A stretch of 64,000 nucleotides of DNA from Clostridium sp. (GTDB lineage: Bacteria; Bacillota; Clostridia; TANB77; CAG-508), in the NCBI GenBank assembly GCA_018371855.1, contig JAHAKD010000002.1, positions 73,850 through 137,849 of the forward strand, read 5' to 3'. Below are positions 5,682-53,513 of the stretch, in pieces. The notes beneath the pieces were generated by a model that was given only the letters and a program-made list of their open reading frames with translations, searched no databases and was not told the origin of the DNA. The position numbers and the translations under genes are program-made. Position 1 is the first letter of the stretch. Each line of letters starts with the position of its first letter.

Positions 5682-6812
5682 ACTTTTAACTTCTTTTTGT
5701 TTATGTCCATTAAAAAATAAATTATAAATAATAATTCCAAATCCTAAAATAGAAATAAATATTGTTACTACAATTCCTACAAAAGGTATCATTTTTAAAG
5801 CACCAATTACAACTGCAATTAATATTGCTAGTAAATATTCTAATGGCATTTTAGAGAATTTTTTGTTATTATAAATTCTTCTAGCCAAAATTGATGCAAA
5901 TATGTATGGAGAAATTCCAATCATAAATATGTATAACATTAATAATAATAATCCAGCACTAAATCCTATTTGTGCAGCAATAAGTATAATAGATAAAATA
6001 GGAATAGCAATTAAAGCAATTAGCCCAGCTAAAAATACTTTTCCAAATTTATGAGATAAACAAGAAGAAGATTTTTCTAAACTACTTTCTAAGAAAAATC
6101 TATAAAGCAAATATACTAAACTTGCTGCAAATATACTATTTACAATATTTATGATTATGCTCCAAATTGTAGTTCCTGTATTTGATGAGTTATTTGTAGT
6201 AAAATGTGTTATTTCTCCACCGATGGTACCACTTGGAAATTCTATTTCATTTTCAGAAACATATGTTAGTTTACCAGTAATAGAACCTTGTATTGAATCT
6301 GTAGATATGATAAATTCCGGTGCATATATATATGCATTTCTTCCTACACTACCCTGTAAAGTTAATTTTTTACTCATGGCATATAAATCTCTAAAAGGAC
6401 CATAGCCTTCAGGTATGTTAAGTTCATTACAAACAGCATATAGTGAAGTTGCTGAAGTATGGAAGTCTATTTTATCCGCTACTATATAAGCATTTGAATT
6501 TATGTAAGATTGTTCGCCAAAAGTAACATTACTTGCACAAACAAATAAATCTCCATCAACTTCGCCATTTATTGTAACATTCTTTCCAAAAATATAAACA
6601 TTTCCATCTACGATTTGATTCATATTAATATCATTTCCATATAAATATAAATCATCATCTACTACAGTAGTTGTATTTTCAGAAGAGTCTGCTACATATG
6701 GTGTTGCTGTTACATCTTCTTGCGTTTCATTTGTATCTGCAAAACATGTTGTAGTAATAGATAATATAATAACTAGAAACAAAGTTATTATAAAGTTTTT
6801 TAATTTTTTCAT
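5661..6812 (-). CDS. membrane protein: N-terminal signal/TM, a beta-helix-like repeat region (possibly bactofilin/polymer-forming family), and a C-terminal multi-TM domain
   Basis: Start chosen at MKKLKNF (6812) with a GGAGG RBS 7 nt upstream; repeats of the type DGNVYIFGKNVTINGEVDGDLFV; domain family uncertain. Confidence 0.45.
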   Translation of the reverse strand: MKKLKNFIITLFLVIILSITTTCFADTNETQEDVTATPYVADSSENTTTVVDDDLYLYGNDINMNQIVDGNVYIFGKNVTINGEVDGDLFVCASNVTFGEQSYINSNAYIVADKIDFHTSATSLYAVCNELNIPEGYGPFRDLYAMSKKLTLQGSVGRNAYIYAPEFIISTDSIQGSITGKLTYVSENEIEFPSGTIGGEITHFTTNNSSNTGTTIWSIIINIVNSIFAASLVYLLYRFFLESSLEKSSSCLSHKFGKVFLAGLIALIAIPILSIILIAAQIGFSAGLLLLMLYIFMIGISPYIFASILARRIYNNKKFSKMPLEYLLAILIAVVIGALKMIPFVGIVVTIFISILGFGIIIYNLFFNGHKQKEVKSKENVAN

Positions 6813-40097: not shown

Positions 40098-40688
40098 ATG
40101 AATAAAGAAATAGAAAGAAAATTTGCTGTAAAGTATTTACCAGAAAATTTAAATATAGAAAGCATTGTACATATAAAACAAGCTTTTATATATAGGGATA
40201 AATTAACACTTATAAGAATAAGAGAAATAAAGGAAAGTTATCCCGCAGATAAGCAAGTATATATTTATACACTAAAAACTAAAGGTGATATTGAATATAA
40301 TAATAATTATGATGTTGCTAAAAAATATGAATTAGAAAATGAAATTAGTAAAGAACTATTTGAAAAATTAATGAATAATAAAATTAGTAACATAATAGAA
40401 AAGACAAGAATCAAAATACCAATAGAAAATAATCTAAAAGTTGAAATAGATATATATTATGATTATTTAGAAGGATTGCTTACAGCAGAAGTAGAATTTC
40501 CAAACGAAGAATTAGCTACTAAATTCCAAAAGCCAGCTTGGCTTGGTGAGGAATTAGGATATAAAAAATTATCAAATAGAAAATTAGCAGAAATGACAAA
40601 AGATGAATGGCAAAAAGAAGTTACAAAAGAAATGATAGAGAATAATAGTATTATAATTAAACAATTAAAGGATAATTATAATATATAG
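40098..40688 (+). CDS. CYTH-domain (triphosphate tunnel metalloenzyme) protein
   Basis: N-terminal EIERKF matches the CYTH ExExK signature; 196 aa. Confidence 0.55.
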   Translation: MNKEIERKFAVKYLPENLNIESIVHIKQAFIYRDKLTLIRIREIKESYPADKQVYIYTLKTKGDIEYNNNYDVAKKYELENEISKELFEKLMNNKISNIIEKTRIKIPIENNLKVEIDIYYDYLEGLLTAEVEFPNEELATKFQKPAWLGEELGYKKLSNRKLAEMTKDEWQKEVTKEMIENNSIIIKQLKDNYNI

Positions 40689-42605: not shown

Positions 42606-42667
42606 TGTTTAATATTGGAGGTTTAAAAGCCTCCAATAATTAAGCTTGTTATAAATTGGAGGATATA

Positions 42668-43822
42668 ATGGCAGAAAAAAGAGATTATTATGAGGTTTTA
42701 GGAGTTAATAAAAATGCAACAGATGATGAACTAAAAAAAGCTTTTAGGAAAATGGCTAAAAAATATCATCCAGATGCAAATCCAAATAATAAAAAAGAAG
42801 CAGAGGAAAAGTTTAAAGAAGTAAATGAAGCTTATGAAACACTTTCTGATCCTCAAAAAAGAAAGATGTATGACCAATTTGGGTTTAATGGTCCACAAGG
42901 ATTTGGTGGTCAAGGAGCTGGACAAGGTGGATATTATTCATATACTTCTAATGGCTTTGATGGATTTAGTGGCTTCGGAGATTTTGGTGATATATTTAGT
43001 TCATTCTTTTCTGGATTTGGTGGTTCTTCTGGAAGAAGTAATAGAAACGGTCCAAAAAGAGGTAGAGATTTAAGACATAATCTAGAAATTACTTTTGAAG
43101 AAGCATATTCAGGAATAAAAAAGGAATTTGTTATAAATAGAGATGAAAAATGTACAACTTGTAACGGAAGTGGTGCAAAACCTGGAACAAATCCTGTAAC
43201 ATGTCCAAATTGCCATGGAACTGGTCAAGTAACACAAGTTCAAAATACAATATTAGGACAAATGCAAACAACTAGAACTTGTTCTGAATGTCATGGAACT
43301 GGTAAAATTATAAAAGAGCCATGTACAACTTGTAGAGGCAAAGGTACAGTAAGAAAACAAGCAAAAGTTACTATAAATATTCCAGCAGGAATTGATGACA
43401 ATCAAACATTAATCTTAAAAAAAGAAGGAGAGCCAGGTGAAAGAGGCGGAGAAAATGGTGATATTTATGTAACAGTACATCTAAAAAGACATAGTATTTT
43501 TACTAGAAAAGATAATAATGTATTGTGTGACATTCCGATTACTATAACTCAAGCTACACTTGGTGCGGAATTAGAGATACCAATGGTAGATGGCGAAAAA
43601 GTAAAATATAAAATACCAGAAGCAACACAAACTGGAACAAGATTTACAATACGAAATAAAGGATTTAAAGCTATTAATGGAAATTGGCAGGGTGATTTTA
43701 TATTTACTGTTAATGTACAAACTCCAAAAAAACTAACAAAAGAACAAAGAGATTTATTAACACAACTTGCTAAAACTATGAATGAACAACCTCCAGTAAA
43801 GAAAAGAGGATTATTTGGATAA
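42668..43822 (+). CDS. dnaJ: molecular chaperone DnaJ
   Basis: J domain with HPD, G/F-rich region, four CxxCxGxG zinc-finger repeats. Confidence 0.95.
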
Positions 43823-43884: not shown

Positions 43885-44592
43885 TTAAGGCTTAGGAATG
43901 TACAGCGATTTTTCGTGGCTGTATCCAGAAGCCTTTAGACAAGCTATTAATTCAGACAGAGGCATACTTAATTTTTTTGTGTTAATTAAGTACGTATTTC
44001 CATTACCGGCATAAATAATAATTATGCCAGAATCGTCTGAATTGTCGAAACTTTCAGAATTGAATTTCCCAAGCTTCCAAAAGTCTATGTATGGAAATTT
44101 CATACTTGCCATTGGATAAAAGGAAGTACTAGCTTCTGAGTCATATATTCCACTAAATGGGATAATGGTGGCAGAATCGAAAAAGTCTAATATTTTAAAC
44201 TTATCCTTTCCTGCATTTGCCAATAGCTCATGTGCAATGCTTGCATTATACTTTCCAATTACAGCAAGCATATGATACCATTTAGCCTGATTTCTTGTGC
44301 CAAATGGTACATAATTCGAGTCAAGCTCAATTGGCAGAATTTCATTTGTGACTTTTTTAAAGCCACACTCTTCTAGAGTATGTTCCACTCCCAATATCAT
44401 TGGAAGTATAAAAGTTCCGAAAGGTGTTGCAAGAATATAAAAAGAACCGTTTTGTGTGTAATTAAATATTCTATCATTCGTTTTTACGGGTTCAAATTTA
44501 ATATTCTTATTATTTGCCTTGAAAACAATTCCTTCATCGGGAATTCTAAAACTCCGTCCAATAATTTCCATTGCATCCATTTCTTCTGTCAT
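43885..44592 (-). CDS. hypothetical protein (235 aa), divergent neighbour of the amidoligase
   Basis: No family recognised. Confidence 0.35.
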   Translation of the reverse strand: MTEEMDAMEIIGRSFRIPDEGIVFKANNKNIKFEPVKTNDRIFNYTQNGSFYILATPFGTFILPMILGVEHTLEECGFKKVTNEILPIELDSNYVPFGTRNQAKWYHMLAVIGKYNASIAHELLANAGKDKFKILDFFDSATIIPFSGIYDSEASTSFYPMASMKFPYIDFWKLGKFNSESFDNSDDSGIIIIYAGNGNTYLINTKKLSMPLSELIACLKASGYSHEKSLYIPKP

Positions 44593-44826
44593 CTTTTTTC
44601 CTCCATTTTTTAATTAATTACTGGAAACTAAACAATTTGCGTCACGAAAAATTATAACATAATTTACATAAAAAGACAATATGATGAAGGAATTATAGAT
44701 GCTAAAAAATGTATATAAATAAATTAAAAAAAGAAAAATTTTTTGCTTTTTGATATGATAAAAATATATATTGGCAACAAAATAATCTAGTGATATAATT
44801 TAGAAAAAAGATTTAACGAGGGAAAA

Positions 44827-45936
44827 ATGAAATACAAAGGACAATATGAAAGACTAAGTTTGCCAGCTTATATGAAATTTGGAATAGAAATAGAAGCTAA
44901 TAATGTTCAAACGAAAAATGGGTTATATGCTGGTGAAAGTGCGAAGTTTATAAGTGACAAAAACTGGCATATGGCAACAAAATGGGAAGAAAGTTTAGTT
45001 GGAGCAAATGGAGCAGAACTTGTTTCACCAATTTTAACAGATATAGAAAGCACATGGAAAAATATAGCAGAAATTTGTAGTAAGATTAAAGAATTTCCAA
45101 AAGATAAAAGTAAAGATGTTAAGGCAGACGATAAATGTGGATTACATGTGCATTTTGATGCAAAATGTTTAGCCAGTGATCCTAAAAAAATGAAAAAGTT
45201 TCTTCATATATATGCAGAAGCAGAAGAACTTATATATAAAATGTGTAATGATAAAGATGACCCAATACGACCTAAAGCTATAAACAAAAATTTTCACGGA
45301 TTATCAAATATTATTTCTGCCATTTGGAGAAATGGTATGGCAGCACCTATTAGCAAAAAAATATTGGAAAAGATTAATAATGGAACGTTAAAGGTATCAC
45401 ATAAAAAATTTGGAAAATTAAGAATGATTGCTAGTAAATTTAAGCTAGACGAAAGAAGATATGCAGGACTTAATCTAACTAATATAGGAAATAGCAAGAA
45501 GAATACAATAGAATTTAGGATGGCTAATGGAACACTTGATCCAGAAGTAATAAAACAAAATGTATTTTTATATGCTTCAATTATCGATACAGCTGTGAAG
45601 ATGACAGAGGAGCCAGGAAAATATGAACCAAAAATGCAAAAATTTTTAAAGCATGATGTTACAGAGCAAGAAAAAGCACAAAGCTTTTTAGATTTAATTA
45701 TGGATTCAGATGAGGATAAAAAGATATATTTAGATAGATGGAAATCTGTAAAAGATGCAAAAGTTTTTTCTAAAAATAATAAAAAGGGATTTGCAACAAC
45801 ATTTAAAAGAGAAGAATTTAAAGATATAGCAATAAGAACTAAAGGAAGTAAGATACGAGCAACATTTAGTAAAATAAAAGATTTTGTATATACAAGAGAT
45901 GAAAGAGGAGATAGAGAAGATAATGTTAGAACTTAA
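44827..45936 (+). CDS. glutamine-synthetase-like amidoligase (Amidoligase_2-type)
   Basis: Motifs in family order: FGIEIEAN (E-x-E), GAELVSPIL (E-x-x-S-P), CGLHVHFD (H-x-H), IEFRMANGT (E-F-R). Assignment from remembered motif patterns. Confidence 0.55.
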   Translation: MKYKGQYERLSLPAYMKFGIEIEANNVQTKNGLYAGESAKFISDKNWHMATKWEESLVGANGAELVSPILTDIESTWKNIAEICSKIKEFPKDKSKDVKADDKCGLHVHFDAKCLASDPKKMKKFLHIYAEAEELIYKMCNDKDDPIRPKAINKNFHGLSNIISAIWRNGMAAPISKKILEKINNGTLKVSHKKFGKLRMIASKFKLDERRYAGLNLTNIGNSKKNTIEFRMANGTLDPEVIKQNVFLYASIIDTAVKMTEEPGKYEPKMQKFLKHDVTEQEKAQSFLDLIMDSDEDKKIYLDRWKSVKDAKVFSKNNKKGFATTFKREEFKDIAIRTKGSKIRATFSKIKDFVYTRDERGDREDNVRT

Positions 45937-46351
45937 ATATAGAAATGCTTTTAAAGAAGTATATGAAATATTAAAGTATACAGATATAGATTTAGTAAAC
46001 AAGATTCCTAAGAAGTTTATTAATTTTTTGAGAGCGAATATGAATAATGACTACGAATTTAATGTACAAGAAGGAATCTGTTTAAATAAACAAATCCTAT
46101 CTGAAGAAACTAATAACATCTTTGCTTTAATATATAGAGATTATTGGGCAACAGAGGAAGAAAAAGAAGAATTCAGAAAAAAAGATGAAGAAGAAAGAAA
46201 ATTAAATGAAGAAAAATTAGAGCATATATTTGACAGAAAAGATAAAGAGATAATAGGAGAAGAAGAGAATAATCAACTTATTAAAATAGAACGTGAAAGT
46301 TTTATAAAAAGATTATTTTCGAAGTTAAAAAGATTTTTTTTTAAGAATTAA
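45923..46351 (+). CDS. small partner protein translationally coupled to the amidoligase; paralog of 55214..55624
   Basis: ATG at 45923 overlaps the amidoligase 3' end by 14 nt; shares EVYEILKY...NKIPK and the C-terminal ESFIxRxxxKLKxFF with the 136-aa protein at 55214. Confidence 0.4.
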   Translation: MLELKYRNAFKEVYEILKYTDIDLVNKIPKKFINFLRANMNNDYEFNVQEGICLNKQILSEETNNIFALIYRDYWATEEEKEEFRKKDEEERKLNEEKLEHIFDRKDKEIIGEEENNQLIKIERESFIKRLFSKLKRFFFKN

Positions 46352-46535
46352 AAGTTTTGAAGGCGTAATTATTTTTACGTCTTTTTTTATTATGTCAAAT
46401 GAAATTATTGTAATTAGCAAAAGCGTGATTTTCTACTAAAAATATTACAAAGTTATGTCAAATTATTTTACAGAATTAGAGTTTATATGATATAATGCAA
46501 ACTATAAGAGCATAAAATAAAATAGGAGATATTAT

Positions 46536-47378
46536 ATGGAAATAATATTAGGAAAAACAGCAGGTTTTTGCAATGGAATTACACGAGCAGTAGAGACTGC
46601 TAAAGAAGAATTAAAAAATACAGAGAATATAGAATGCTTAGGAGATTTATTACATAATGAGCAAGTTTTATCTAAGCTAAAAGAAAATGGACTTACTATA
46701 ATAAACGATATAAAAGAAGCAAAAAAAAGAGTATTAATAAGAGCACATGGTGTAAAAAAAGGAGTTTATGAATATGCAAAGCAAAACAATATAGAAATAG
46801 TAGATTGTACGTGTCCAAAGGTACTAAAAATTCATAACCTAGCAGAAGAATTATCAAATAAAGATTATTATATAATAGTAGTGGGAGAAAAAACTCATGC
46901 AGAAGTTATTGGAACATTTAGTTTTTGCAAAAATGGCGAAATAATAGAAAACATAGAACAATTACAAGCACGAATCGACGATTTAAATAAAAAAGAAAAA
47001 TTGGCAGTACTAACACAAACAACATATAACTTACAAAAGTTTTTAGAAATAGAAAAATATTTAAAAGAACATATAAAAACACAATTAGAAATAAATAATG
47101 GAATATGTAATGCAACAGAAACTAGACAAAAAGAAACAGAAGAAATTTCGAAAAATGTAGAGTTTATGGTTATAATAGGAGGCAAGAAAAGTTCAAATAC
47201 AAACAAATTATACGAAATTTCACAAAAAAATTGTAAAAAAGCTATTAAAATAGAAGAGGTATCAGAACTATATAACGAAGATTTAGATAATATTAGTAAA
47301 ATAGGTGTGATGGCAGGGGCTTCAACACCAAAGGAAAGTATAGAAGAAGTTATAAAATATTTAAAGGAGAGGAATTAA
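46536..47378 (+). CDS. ispH: 4-hydroxy-3-methylbut-2-enyl diphosphate reductase
   Basis: GFCNGITRAVE N-terminal Cys motif; 280 aa. Confidence 0.75.
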   Translation: MEIILGKTAGFCNGITRAVETAKEELKNTENIECLGDLLHNEQVLSKLKENGLTIINDIKEAKKRVLIRAHGVKKGVYEYAKQNNIEIVDCTCPKVLKIHNLAEELSNKDYYIIVVGEKTHAEVIGTFSFCKNGEIIENIEQLQARIDDLNKKEKLAVLTQTTYNLQKFLEIEKYLKEHIKTQLEINNGICNATETRQKETEEISKNVEFMVIIGGKKSSNTNKLYEISQKNCKKAIKIEEVSELYNEDLDNISKIGVMAGASTPKESIEEVIKYLKERN

Positions 47379-51948: not shown

Positions 51949-52437
51949 GAATATTAGGAATTGACCCTGGGTTTGCAATAACACGGGTATAGCATAATAG
52001 ATTATATAGGAAATAAATTTAAATTAGAGACATCTGGTGCAATTTTGACAGAAGCTGGTGAATCTTTTCCATTAAGGTTGGAAAAGATTTACACAGATTT
52101 AAATAATATAATAAATACTTATAAACCAGATGCGATGTCTATAGAAGAACTATTTTTTAATAATAATGCAAAAACAGCTATTAATGTTGCCCAGGCAAGG
52201 GGAGTAATATTAATAACAGCAAGAATAAATAAACTAGATATATTCGAATATACACCATTACAAATAAAGCAAGCAGTTACAGGATATGGTAGAGCAGATA
52301 AAATACAAGTACAGAGAATGGTAAAAATGATATTAAATACTGAAAAATTACCAAAATTGGATGATATAACAGATAGTATGGCGATAGCGATTTGCCATGC
52401 ACATTCATCTAAATTTTCATCTCAATTTAAATTATAA
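51945..52437 (+). pseudogene. ruvC: Holliday junction resolvase RuvC, disrupted by a +1 frameshift (extra C at about 51984)
   Basis: MRILGIDPGFAITRV* in frame 1; removing the C gives ...AITGYSIIDYIGNKFKLETSGAILTEAGESF... continuous with ORF 52045..52437 (EELFFNNNAKTA, TPLQIKQAVTGYGRADK). Confidence 0.75.
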
Positions 52438-52489: not shown

Positions 52490-53513
52490 ATGTTAATAGA
52501 AGAGTTAGAAAAAGAACTTCGGACAAGGAATTTTAAAAAGTATATATGTTTTATATGGCGAAGAAAAATTTTTACTAGAGTCAATAGTAAAGAAAATAAG
52601 AAAAAATTTTGGAGAATGTATAAATGGGATTAATTATATTAGTATAGATGAAACGAATATTTCAGAACTAATAGCAGATATACAAACTCCAGCTTTTGGC
52701 TATCCAAAAAAATTAATTCTTGTACGAAATTCGGAAATCTTAAAAAAAGAAGGAAAAAGAAAGAATCCAGAGCTTGCTAAAATTAAAACTAGCGTTGCAG
52801 AATACATAGAAAATAATATAGCCGAAATTAACGAAAGTGTAATTTTAGTATTTGTAGAAGAAAATGTAGAAAAACAAAAACTATATAAAGTATTAGAAAA
52901 AAATGGAGAGGTATGTGAATTTACATATCAGAAGCCAAATCAAATTATAAGAAGGTTAAAGTCAATAACAAATGCGTATAAAGTTAATGTAGCAGAAAAT
53001 ACATTGCAATATTTAATAGAACAATGTGGACAAAATATGCAGGACTTAATTAATGAGATAAGAAAATTAATAGAATATGCTGGCGAAGGTGGAACGATAA
53101 ATAAAGTAGATATAGATTTACTGTGTACTAAACAAACACAAGCCATTATATTTAACTTAACTGATTATTTAGGAAAGAAGCAAATAAAACTAGCATTGGA
53201 AGAACTAAATAATTTGCTTTATAATAAAGAACCAATTCAAAAAATTTTAATAACATTATATAACCATTTTAAAAAATTGTATTTTACAAAAATAGCAGAA
53301 AGATATAAACTAGATATAGCAAAATCTTTAAATTTAAAACCTAATCAGATGTTTTTAGTAAATAAATATAAAATGCAAGCAAAAAGCTTTACAGATTTAG
53401 AGATTTCTAATATTATAAAAGAACTAATTGATTTAGACTATAATTATAAGGTTGGTAAAATTGATTTAAATATAGGATTAGAAACAATTTTATGTAATAA
53501 TTGCTCAAAGTAA
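52490..53513 (+). pseudogene. holA: DNA polymerase III delta subunit HolA, with a frameshift near 52535-52545
   Basis: MLIEELEKELRTRNFKK in one frame, then SIYVLYGEEKFLLE...(delta motifs) to 53513 in the next; no alternative start in the second frame. Confidence 0.7.

Follow-up and report, generated by a model that had tools for sequence, protein, structure and literature searches.

This work describes a two-gene unit in a 64,000-nucleotide (nt) stretch of DNA from Clostridium sp. (contig JAHAKD010000002.1), referred to here as the window. The unit lies between dnaJ (positions 42656 to 43822) and ispH (46536 to 47378). Its first gene (44827 to 45936, plus strand) begins with ATG and encodes a 369-aa amidoligase, a carboxylate-amine ligase of predicted glutamine synthetase (GS) fold that falls in the Pfam family Amidoligase_2. 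The second gene (45923 to 46351, plus strand) encodes a small protein of 142 aa and starts, with ATG, 14 nt before the ligase gene ends. A sigma-70-type promoter-like site (44771 to 44799, plus strand), which comprises TTGGCA, a 17-nt spacer, and TATAAT with a TG before the second hexamer, lies 28 nt upstream of the ligase ATG. It is identified by consensus matching only, with 11 of 12 matches, and is the joint best site in the 3-kb region; promoter-like sites there are no more numerous overall than expected from shuffling. Past the second gene, a hairpin resembling an intrinsic terminator and followed by a T run (46359 to 46384, plus strand) would close the operon and is the sole terminator-like site in the region, and ispH has a separate promoter-like site at 46467 to 46496. 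No Rfam family matched in or around the operon at E values up to 0.1. Judged from these signals, the locus is a self-contained two-gene operon, made up of a promoter-like site, the ligase gene, the overlapping small gene, and a terminator-like hairpin.

Translational coupling of the ligase to an uncharacterized small protein had been proposed in an earlier, sequence-only reading of this DNA, and the coupling is found well beyond the window: a gene of the small family overlaps the ligase stop codon in 58 of 62 ligase-anchored metagenome loci. The same reading combined the 14-nt overlap with a length of 155 aa. The overlap is correct as given, whereas the length belongs to the open reading frame (ORF) that starts at TTG 45884 and would overlap the ligase gene by 53 nt. 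The form that starts at ATG 45923 lines up with the N terminus of a 136-aa paralog encoded elsewhere in the window, and most homologues in the databases likewise have 142 aa.

The identity of the 369-aa protein as a GS-like amidoligase is likewise borne out. Its residues 40 to 251 match Amidoligase_2 (PF12224) with 63.6 bits against a cutoff of 22 (E = 3.4e-17), and two PHROG amidoligase families match it at 4e-18 and 4.6e-8. The predicted model has a GS/GCL/PafA-type fold, with a catalytic core at approximately residues 17 to 260, then a helical extension, and finally a low-confidence tail (pLDDT below 50 over residues 319 to 369). A search of the PDB with the ligase profile, which covered chains of PafA and Dop, found no sequence at E values up to 1. 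All four motifs originally claimed for the protein are in the sequence and in the claimed order: E21-x-E23, E64-L-V-S-P68, H107-V-H109, and E229-F-R231. Across 116 ligase homologues with 58 to 91% identity, E21, E23, E64, S67, P68, H107, H109, E229, and R231 are invariant. By its family, predicted fold, and motifs, the first gene product would be an ATP-dependent carboxylate-amine ligase with its catalytic residues intact. Conservation also extends into the low-confidence C-terminal tail, where the segment R328-x-x-F331-x-x-I334-A335-x-x-T338 (45808 to 45840, plus strand) is a candidate docking motif for the small protein; I334 is invariant, and R328, F331, A335, and T338 are each conserved in at least 90% of homologues.

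The two genes are found together in four or more distinct genomic contexts. Clustering of neighboring genes returned synteny blocks only, and no gene besides the pair is common to these contexts; the two genes can therefore be regarded as a unit. Across genera the pair is well conserved and keeps its synteny, in a slot of the core genome, and its function is dispensable, since a 1.2-kb deletion has removed it in one close relative. Neither integrase or other mobile-element genes nor secretion genes were found near the pairs. The small family had no match in 50,697 phage records and a single locus in 2.9 million viral contigs, and the ligase gave only weak matches in phage records, to Porphyromonas phages, with 24 to 34% similarity to phage amidoligases. 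On these grounds—phages nearly devoid of the small family, weak ligase matches, and no nearby integrases—a phage or mobile-element origin of the pair was rejected. PADLOC-DB 2.0 contained no match for the ligase, for either small protein of the window, or for the 235-aa and 491-aa proteins described below.

A divergently transcribed gene (43885 to 44592, minus strand) encodes a 235-aa protein that the sequence-only reading had mentioned along with the pair. No family matched this protein. It is fast evolving: its ortholog at a second locus (L012) is 36% identical, and it is ∼47% identical between genomes in which dnaJ is 98% and the ligase 90% identical. The gene is also variably present, being absent from some syntenic relatives (L010-type loci), and its product is unrelated to the divergent neighbors of the pair in other contexts. 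It was consequently rejected as a conserved third component and probably lies outside the ligase-small protein module.

The small-protein family

In the AlphaFold2 (AF2) model, the 142-aa protein has three parts: a helical N-domain (residues 1 to 103; 45923 to 46231) with pLDDT above 90, a charged linker (residues 104 to 125; 46232 to 46297) that is predicted to be disordered at pLDDT below 50, and a cationic amphipathic C-terminal helix (approximately residues 126 to 139; 46298 to 46339), which the model itself places at residues 127 to 139. Conservation sits in the N-domain, which holds the invariant residues of the family (E12, I16, L17, P29, Y44, Q57, Y74, W75, and E80), and not in the sequence of the helix; it is lowest in the charged linker. 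What persists in the helix is its physical character. The tail helix has a hydrophobic moment of 0.82 and a charge of +6, and the means over 84 family members are 0.78 and +4.4. The trait of a short cationic amphipathic terminal helix after a flexible linker, as seen in membrane tethers, is thus present in the AF2 model and conserved as a property in those 84 members. Family members with tandem domains retain one terminal helix only.

The family comprises 4,530 cluster representatives (clusters at 50% identity). It has no match in Pfam, NCBIfam, PHROG, PADLOC, or the PDB, and no similar solved fold was found. It is a large, undescribed family that is absent from the domain databases searched, and it is confined to poorly studied gut Clostridia that are known mainly from metagenomes.

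Linkage between the two families runs in one direction. The ligase is usually followed by a member of the small family, but the small family is not ligase specific. Its paralogs follow more than 20 upstream proteins that are unrelated to each other by BLAST, and most of those other than the ligase have no Pfam identity. Some, for example, those for a radical SAM protein and a SpoU methylase and carB, are ordinary housekeeping genes and may be mere neighbors. Small proteins whose upstream proteins are of one class group together, and a single genome may hold several: UMGS1570 has paralogs with different upstream proteins at loci L015 and L067 and two more in L053, and L060 has three consecutive cassettes, each of an upstream gene and a small gene. 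Natural fusions join the small family to an ADP-ribosylglycohydrolase (23 members), a VWA protein, and a STAND NTPase-TPR protein. As some fusions (L073 and P0320) lack the cationic helix, the N-domain can work without it. The genome scan used alignment A1, the wider alignment A2 being too diverse, so the 80 genome loci retrieved are biased to ligase-linked members.

The window itself contains a second unit of this kind. A 491-aa protein (53729 to 55204, plus strand), for which family searches gave no match, is encoded directly upstream of the 136-aa paralog (55214 to 55624, plus strand). The diverged copy of the small gene that had been noted at this position is a true paralog, with 31% identity to the 142-aa protein (E = 5e-21) and a family profile match at E = 1.9e-41. 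Its architecture matches that of the 142-aa protein, including the type of C-terminal helix (SFIERIWNKLKNFFKRS), and it belongs to a separate small-protein clade that tracks the 491-aa protein. The arrangement of a 491-like gene and a small gene is kept in 11 loci, in most of which a gpr-sized ORF follows. A comparison of the ligase with the 491-aa protein, the large upstream proteins of the two units, showed no similarity.

Several upstream proteins share a C-terminal feature. A module of ∼65 aa with an IGK.T motif is common to at least six unrelated ones, and its profile next retrieves another upstream protein and then two mini-ORFs directly upstream of small genes. The motif I-[GA]-x-x-T, for which the motif statistic is post hoc, occurs ∼35 residues from the C terminus in several unrelated upstream proteins. 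In the ligase, I334, A335, and T338 lie at the same distance from the C terminus, within the low-confidence region. Homology of the ligase tail to the shared module was considered and set aside, the resemblance of IA.RT to IGK.T being suggestive and not significant (hhalign E = 0.09 over 8 columns). The motif is not present in the 491-aa family or in many other upstream proteins.

Possible roles of the small protein

The sequence-only reading had offered the small protein as a substrate, as a carrier of a peptide tag, or as a regulatory or immunity partner. The architecture of the protein points to a role outside these options, that of a targeting adaptor. In the reading that we prefer, with a probability of about 0.4, the 142-aa protein would act as an adaptor, docking onto the ligase and keeping it membrane bound. 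We infer the following steps of binding, membrane association, and catalysis. The N-domain would bind the protein encoded just upstream, which in this operon would probably mean the conserved disordered C-terminal tail of the ligase. The flexible charged linker would separate the N-domain from the terminal helix, and this helix may rest against the membrane from the cytoplasmic side, in the way of the targeting helices of FtsA and MinD. Because the protein has an N-domain, a linker, and an amphipathic helix in the manner of an adaptor, it would recruit the ligase or hold it at the membrane, where the ligase may modify a substrate close to the membrane by amide-bond formation. The neighborhood of the pair contains nothing that identifies such a membrane substrate.

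The adaptor reading draws on the conserved coupling of the two genes, the three-part architecture of the small protein, the variety of upstream and fused proteins, the grouping of small proteins by upstream class, and, as indirect hints of docking, the tail module of unrelated upstream proteins and the conserved motif of the ligase tail. Against it stand the nonsignificant similarity of that tail to the module, the post hoc motif statistic, the upstream proteins without the motif, the housekeeping genes that may be mere neighbors, the fusions without a cationic helix, the absence of any pointer to a membrane substrate, and the loss of the pair in one relative. The helix might, moreover, be a pore former or bind protein or nucleic acid.

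The adaptor reading can be widened to the whole family, at which point it becomes more tentative. The small protein would then represent a new promiscuous adaptor domain of gut Clostridia, which may recognize a short docking segment at the C terminus of each of more than 20 unrelated enzymes and use its amphipathic helix to bring them to one shared destination, the membrane or some other place. If this is true, the site of action of the Amidoligase_2 enzyme is the membrane, where it may, for example, use an envelope precursor. In this form of the proposal, expression of some ligase orthologues would also depend on a programmed +1 ribosomal frameshift; the frameshifted orthologues are those of L001, L155, L021, and L031, whose full-length product would span an AAA-CGG/AAA-TAA site.

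Among the alternatives, the one that survives best, although we regard it as rather unlikely, is that the small protein is a neutralizer or regulator resembling an antitoxin or immunity protein. It would be a promiscuous inhibitor of unrelated, potentially harmful enzymes, and the ligase would count as a conflict enzyme or as one resembling a toxin. A domain recruited in this way to many unrelated enzymes is the Panacea (PanA) antitoxin domain. The operon has the form of a type II toxin-antitoxin locus, that is, a small bicistronic operon with overlapping genes (here, the 14-nt overlap, the promoter-like site, and the terminator-like hairpin), and the small gene is always downstream. The multiple paralogs of UMGS1570 and the consecutive cassettes of L060 would suit such a role, as would the fast evolution of the divergent 235-aa neighbor. 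The upstream proteins include a DEAD-box helicase, a weakly SprT-like protein, and a kinase-like protein with a match to PDC-M03A, a PADLOC candidate (E = 3e-9), and the STAND NTPase and VWA fusions resemble conflict systems. However, the ligase is strongly conserved (60 to 90% identity), with intact motifs, in a core syntenic slot across genera, and the proteins of the window lack PADLOC matches. The distribution of the pair points both ways: it is found in several contexts and deleted in one relative, yet its synteny crosses genera without adjoining integrases or mobile elements, and phage collections contain almost no member of the small family. Within the small protein, no DNA-binding domain was detected, and it is not obvious what an antitoxin would do with a membrane-type amphipathic tail.

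It is improbable that the small protein serves as a cotranslational assembly or folding chaperone for the upstream protein, with no targeting role and with the helix in the interface. Translational coupling, the combination of one constant small protein with variable large ones, and the tracking of upstream class by small-protein clades are all compatible with a chaperone. A cationic amphipathic helix that is conserved across sequence-unrelated upstream proteins is nevertheless hard to explain as a protein-specific interface, and a spacer as long and disordered as this one is more in keeping with a tether.

Quite improbable, too, is a membrane-active effector, in which the upstream enzyme would sense or process a signal and the helix would perturb the membrane, as in a two-component module of the abortive-infection or stress-response type. 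The strongly amphipathic and cationic character of the terminal helix is family wide, the small domain is fused to the C terminus of a STAND NTPase (a frequent site of effector domains), and the upstream protein of L004 matches a PADLOC candidate. The STAND fusion itself, however, is without the cationic helix, and it is the N-domain rather than the helix sequence that is conserved. Furthermore, a single helix of 14 residues is too short to span a bilayer, and the family resides in the core genome, is nearly absent from phages, and is absent from known defense models.

Finally, a ligase substrate or peptide-tag carrier, like Pup with PafA or a Glu-rich RimK-type acceptor, to which the ligase would add amino acids or which it would attach to targets, is very unlikely and the least likely of the earlier options: the coupling is tight and conserved and the small protein carries a Glu/Lys-rich disordered segment, but this charged linker is its least conserved part, the conserved residues lie in the folded helical domain rather than the tail, and the family pairs with non-ligases and is fused to unrelated enzymes. 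The C-terminal residue of 38 ligase-linked small proteins is K, R, N, Y, F, S, L, G, Q, V, or P, with no GG motif. Since this residue varies, there is no conserved terminal carboxylate of the Pup or ubiquitin kind, and a Pup-like tag is unlikely.

Relation to known systems

We know of no report that demonstrates a substrate or role for an Amidoligase_2 enzyme. The ligase clade described here forms a clean, conserved two-gene unit with its small protein and as such provides a concrete handle on the function of these enzymes. Characterizing the small family would annotate thousands of hypothetical proteins and could reveal a general way of localizing or controlling enzymes in gut Clostridia.

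According to the Pfam description, the usual neighbors of Amidoligase_2 genes are a GAT-like thiol peptidase in proteobacteria and an AIG2/gamma-glutamyl cyclotransferase (GGCT) in firmicutes. The ligase of the window is a typical member in its profile match, its predicted GS-type fold, and its intact acidic, His, and Arg motifs, but it has neither of these neighbors, being flanked instead by dnaJ, the 235-aa gene, the small gene, and ispH. Its steady neighbor is a small helical protein with an amphipathic tail. Amidoligase_2 enzymes were predicted to be GS-like COOH-NH2 ligases by Iyer, Abhiman, Burroughs, and Aravind in 2009, as cited in PMC11318856 and PMC4431377, and PMC11318856 lists an amidoligase and GGCT pair in a Clostridium prophage. 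The ligase clade described here is chromosomal and belongs to gut Clostridia, and its similarity to phage amidoligases is weak.

PafA and Dop, with their protein Pup, belong to the same ligase superfamily, and there too a ligase is encoded with a small, partly disordered protein. They differ in having no sequence match to the ligase described here, with similarity confined to the fold. The small protein differs from Pup in being mostly folded, in lacking a conserved C-terminal Gln or Glu or a GGQ or GGE ending, and in belonging to a family that also pairs with non-ligases.

PanA, the adaptors of secretion systems, and effector-associated conflict domains resemble the small family in that one small domain is found beside or fused to many unrelated proteins. 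No homology to them was detected, however; no secretion or mobile genes lie nearby, and the small gene is fixed downstream.

Membrane tethers such as FtsA, SepF, and MinD have a domain that binds peptides and, in addition, an amphipathic helix for membrane targeting. The small protein has no sequence or fold relationship to them, and its clients would be diverse enzymes encoded upstream rather than FtsZ. The likeness is one of analogy and consists of a globular interaction domain, a flexible linker, and a short terminal amphipathic helix. In pattern and charge, the tail of the 142-aa protein (SFIKRLFSKLKRFF) resembles the tails of Escherichia coli FtsA (GSWIKRLNSWLRKEF) and MinD (KKGFLKRLFGG); the targeting helix of E. 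coli FtsA has a hydrophobic moment of 0.57, compared to 0.82 for the small protein.

Organization and conservation of the ligase-partner pair

The ligase, a 369-aa protein encoded at 44827-45936 (+ strand), lies between dnaJ (42656-43822) and ispH (46536-47378), and the ORF table bears out this position, which had been proposed from the sequence alone. Its gene overlaps that of a small protein, the partner. The 14-nt ATG overlap described in the sequence-only reading stands, but the size of 155 aa does not: that figure corresponds to the longest ORF, from a TTG at 45884, whereas the ATG at 45923 (stop end 46351, + strand) gives 142 aa. The 142-aa form can be aligned from its N terminus onward with the product of 55214-55624, borne out as a diverged paralog (31% identity, E=5e-21), and most homologues in the protein collection are likewise 142 aa long. 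Because the pair has its own strong promoter-like site (TTGGCA-17-TG-TATAAT, 44771-44799, ahead of the ligase) and the sole terminator-like hairpin of the region (46359-46384), and a separate promoter-like site is present for ispH, the two genes look like an autonomous bicistronic operon. Rfam gave no family matches in the operon region.

Contigs 98-99% identical to the window derive from human-gut metagenomes, the closest named genomes being "Clostridium sp. CAG:354"-like MAGs, and hundreds of full-length ligase homologues were found at 60-90% identity. The dnaJ-ispH slot likewise holds the pair in the closest genera. In more distant relatives (45-65% identity), the pair has other surroundings, among them sites adjoining polysaccharide deacetylase and SSB; FtsH, GIY-YIG, and HU; or recA, scpA, and a putative sporulation gene. 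Neighbor comparison across these contexts found no further genes traveling with the pair. The ispH, murB, and yvcK-like neighbors are envelope related; since the location of the pair varies independently of theirs, we draw no functional inference from these genes. The genes for the ligase and the small protein form a genuine and conserved module of two. The module is dispensable, since it has been lost in one close relative (Clostridia bacterium HGM13682, locus L056, about 5900-6250; dnaJ 98% identical), where a 1.2-kb deletion leaves the promoter and ligase codons 1 to 27 fused to the small gene at about its codon 62.

The divergent 235-aa orphan gene (43885-44592, - strand), previously grouped with the pair, evolves much faster than the flanking genes. 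It is missing from some syntenic loci and is only ~47% identical between genomes whose dnaJ and ligase are 98% and 90% identical, respectively; on this comparison it appears to be a fast-evolving neighbor rather than a component of the module.

In several diverged species (loci L001-L003, L023, L154-L158, L021, and L031, outside the window; e.g., L001:5150-5260), a single additional base, always at one position, breaks the reading frame of the ligase orthologue at codon ~96; three lineages have AAT AAA C GGA at this site, and L031 has AAA T AAA GGA. Purifying selection acts on both halves (dN/dS 0.06-0.25 at dS of about 1-2.5), and the HVH motif is encoded after the shift site but ahead of the next ATG. 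These features, together with the shared position, make the split genes candidates for programmed +1 frameshifting at a rare CGG codon or stop codon. In L030, the orthologue is broken elsewhere, near residue 178.

Three other ORFs in the window were noted. A RuvC-like ORF (51949-52437) lacks an intact N terminus, with in-frame stops at about 51955 and 51979 and a degenerate-looking region where the catalytic GIDPG motif is expected; either a pseudogene or an error in the sequence could account for this. A frame resembling holA (DNA polymerase III delta; 52500-53513) is open from about 52506 yet contains no ATG, GTG, or TTG upstream of 53004, pointing to translation from a non-canonical start codon or to a sequence error. 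Between grpE and dnaK, a 196-aa ORF (40098-40688) without Pfam or NCBIfam model matches has an EIERKF (ExExK, CYTH-like) motif at its start and is conserved in relatives, where it occupies the equivalent site (L010 and L012).

The small-protein family and its upstream partners

Viewed from the ligase, the linkage anticipated by the sequence-only reading is consistent: a small-family gene overlaps the ligase stop codon in 58 of 62 loci retrieved through the ligase with at least 450 nt downstream, a sample in whose selection the partner played no part. Two distant amidoligases (26% identity) are among the exceptions. The converse fails, as the family is far wider than its ligase-linked members; with an E cutoff of 0.001, its profile retrieved 4530 cluster representatives (clustering at 50% identity), and with a cutoff of 1e-10 it retrieved 2873. 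No significant match was found in Pfam, NCBIfam, or PHROG, and database names offer nothing functional beyond "hypothetical protein." A DUF2267 label on one member, from one source, was not reproduced by a Pfam scan. The partner is a member of none of the families testable here and, judging from these profile searches, belongs to a large undescribed family.

Among 80 species-level genome loci, the ligase precedes about 36 of the small genes, and the remainder follow >20 BLAST-unrelated proteins. These include the 491-aa family of the window (11 loci, most then with a gpr-sized ORF), a family of about 650 aa, 139-aa families, a DEAD-box helicase, a kinase-like protein matching PADLOC candidate PDC-M03A, a weakly SprT-like protein, a Sel1-repeat protein, and many proteins without annotation. 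Some of the upstream genes, such as those for radical SAM and SpoU methylase proteins and carB, may be mere neighbors. Within the window, the 491-aa orphan, which has no matches in Pfam, NCBIfam, PHROG, PADLOC, or PDB, forms a second unit with the 136-aa paralog (53729-55624), followed by gpr (55669-56652). Elsewhere, three successive cassettes of a large protein (179, 719, and 425 aa) plus a small-family protein lie within 6.5 kb (L060:240-6459).

Fusions also occur (locus L073 and proteins P0320 and P0373). An ADP-ribosylglycohydrolase-DUF6508 protein (23 sequences, including NCBI MBP3831932.1) carries one small-protein N-domain copy with its amphipathic helix in front, a VWA protein contains two copies internally, and a 1402-aa Zn-ribbon/STAND-NTPase/TPR protein from a Lachnospiraceae MAG (L073:2428-6636) has two at its C terminus. 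Tandem two-domain forms of the small protein are found as well. In a neighbor-joining tree, small proteins group by partner class, with all ligase-linked members in one block and all 491-linked members in another. A single genome can carry at least four paralogs with differing partners (UMGS1570: L015, L067, and two in L053).

A C-terminal module of about 65 residues, hinting at a docking site, recurs in at least six partner proteins that show no other relatedness. Its IGK.T motif lies 31-41 residues before the C terminus, and the module is present in proteins encoded upstream of small genes in L049, L063, L065, L076, L078, L082, L085, L086, and L091. When the 3931 ORFs of the loci were all scanned with the module profile, the next three non-seed matches were the L004 kinase-like partner and two mini-ORFs (L084:5779-5958 and L048:5751-5957) that comprise little beyond the module and immediately precede small-family genes. 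In the ligase tail, IA.RT stands equally far from the C terminus, and profile-profile alignment selects exactly this segment at a nonsignificant E of 0.09. A regex test designed after seeing the data placed the motif in 6/24 partner clusters versus 16/513 controls. The 491-aa family lacks IGK.T.

Possible roles of the small protein

Our tentative reading, at a probability of roughly 0.4, is that the small protein is an adaptor that would bind its upstream-encoded client and take it to a common place, most simply the inner face of the membrane. We infer this mechanism because one constant small protein accompanies many variable large partners, gene order is fixed with translational coupling, small-protein clades track the partner, and a folded domain is followed by a spacer and a cationic amphipathic terminal helix. 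Within the partner, the hydrophobic moment peaks in that helix, SFIKRLFSKLKRFF (0.82), which has a charge of +6; means across 84 family members are 0.78 and +4.4, and the helix sequence itself is variable. FtsA and MinD possess membrane-targeting helices, to which the partner's helix is similar in pattern.

A promiscuous antitoxin-like neutralizer, favored by the cassette arrays and by conflict-type partners and fusions, is unlikely given the core-genome conservation, the near absence from phage collections, and the absence from mobile elements and defense models. That the small protein instead serves as an assembly chaperone seems improbable, and that it is a membrane-active effector more doubtful again. 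The earlier proposal of a substrate of the ligase, or carrier of a peptide tag, is very improbable, opposed by a C-terminal residue that is not conserved among small proteins and by the existence of non-ligase partners.

Comparison with known systems

By score, fold, and motifs, the ligase is a GS-like amidoligase of the Amidoligase_2 family, as initially recognized. The usual neighborhood of this family includes a GAT-like peptidase or AIG2/GGCT, neither of which accompanies the locus described here. An amidoligase with GGCT is listed for a Clostridium prophage (PMC11318856). The ligase has a fold in common with PafA/Dop, but the ligase-partner pair does not fit the Pup system. To amphipathic-helix tethers and to promiscuous adaptor or antitoxin domains, the partner would be alike in its way of working only, not by membership. 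The ligase-partner module is a new variant on the amidoligase gene-neighborhood theme.
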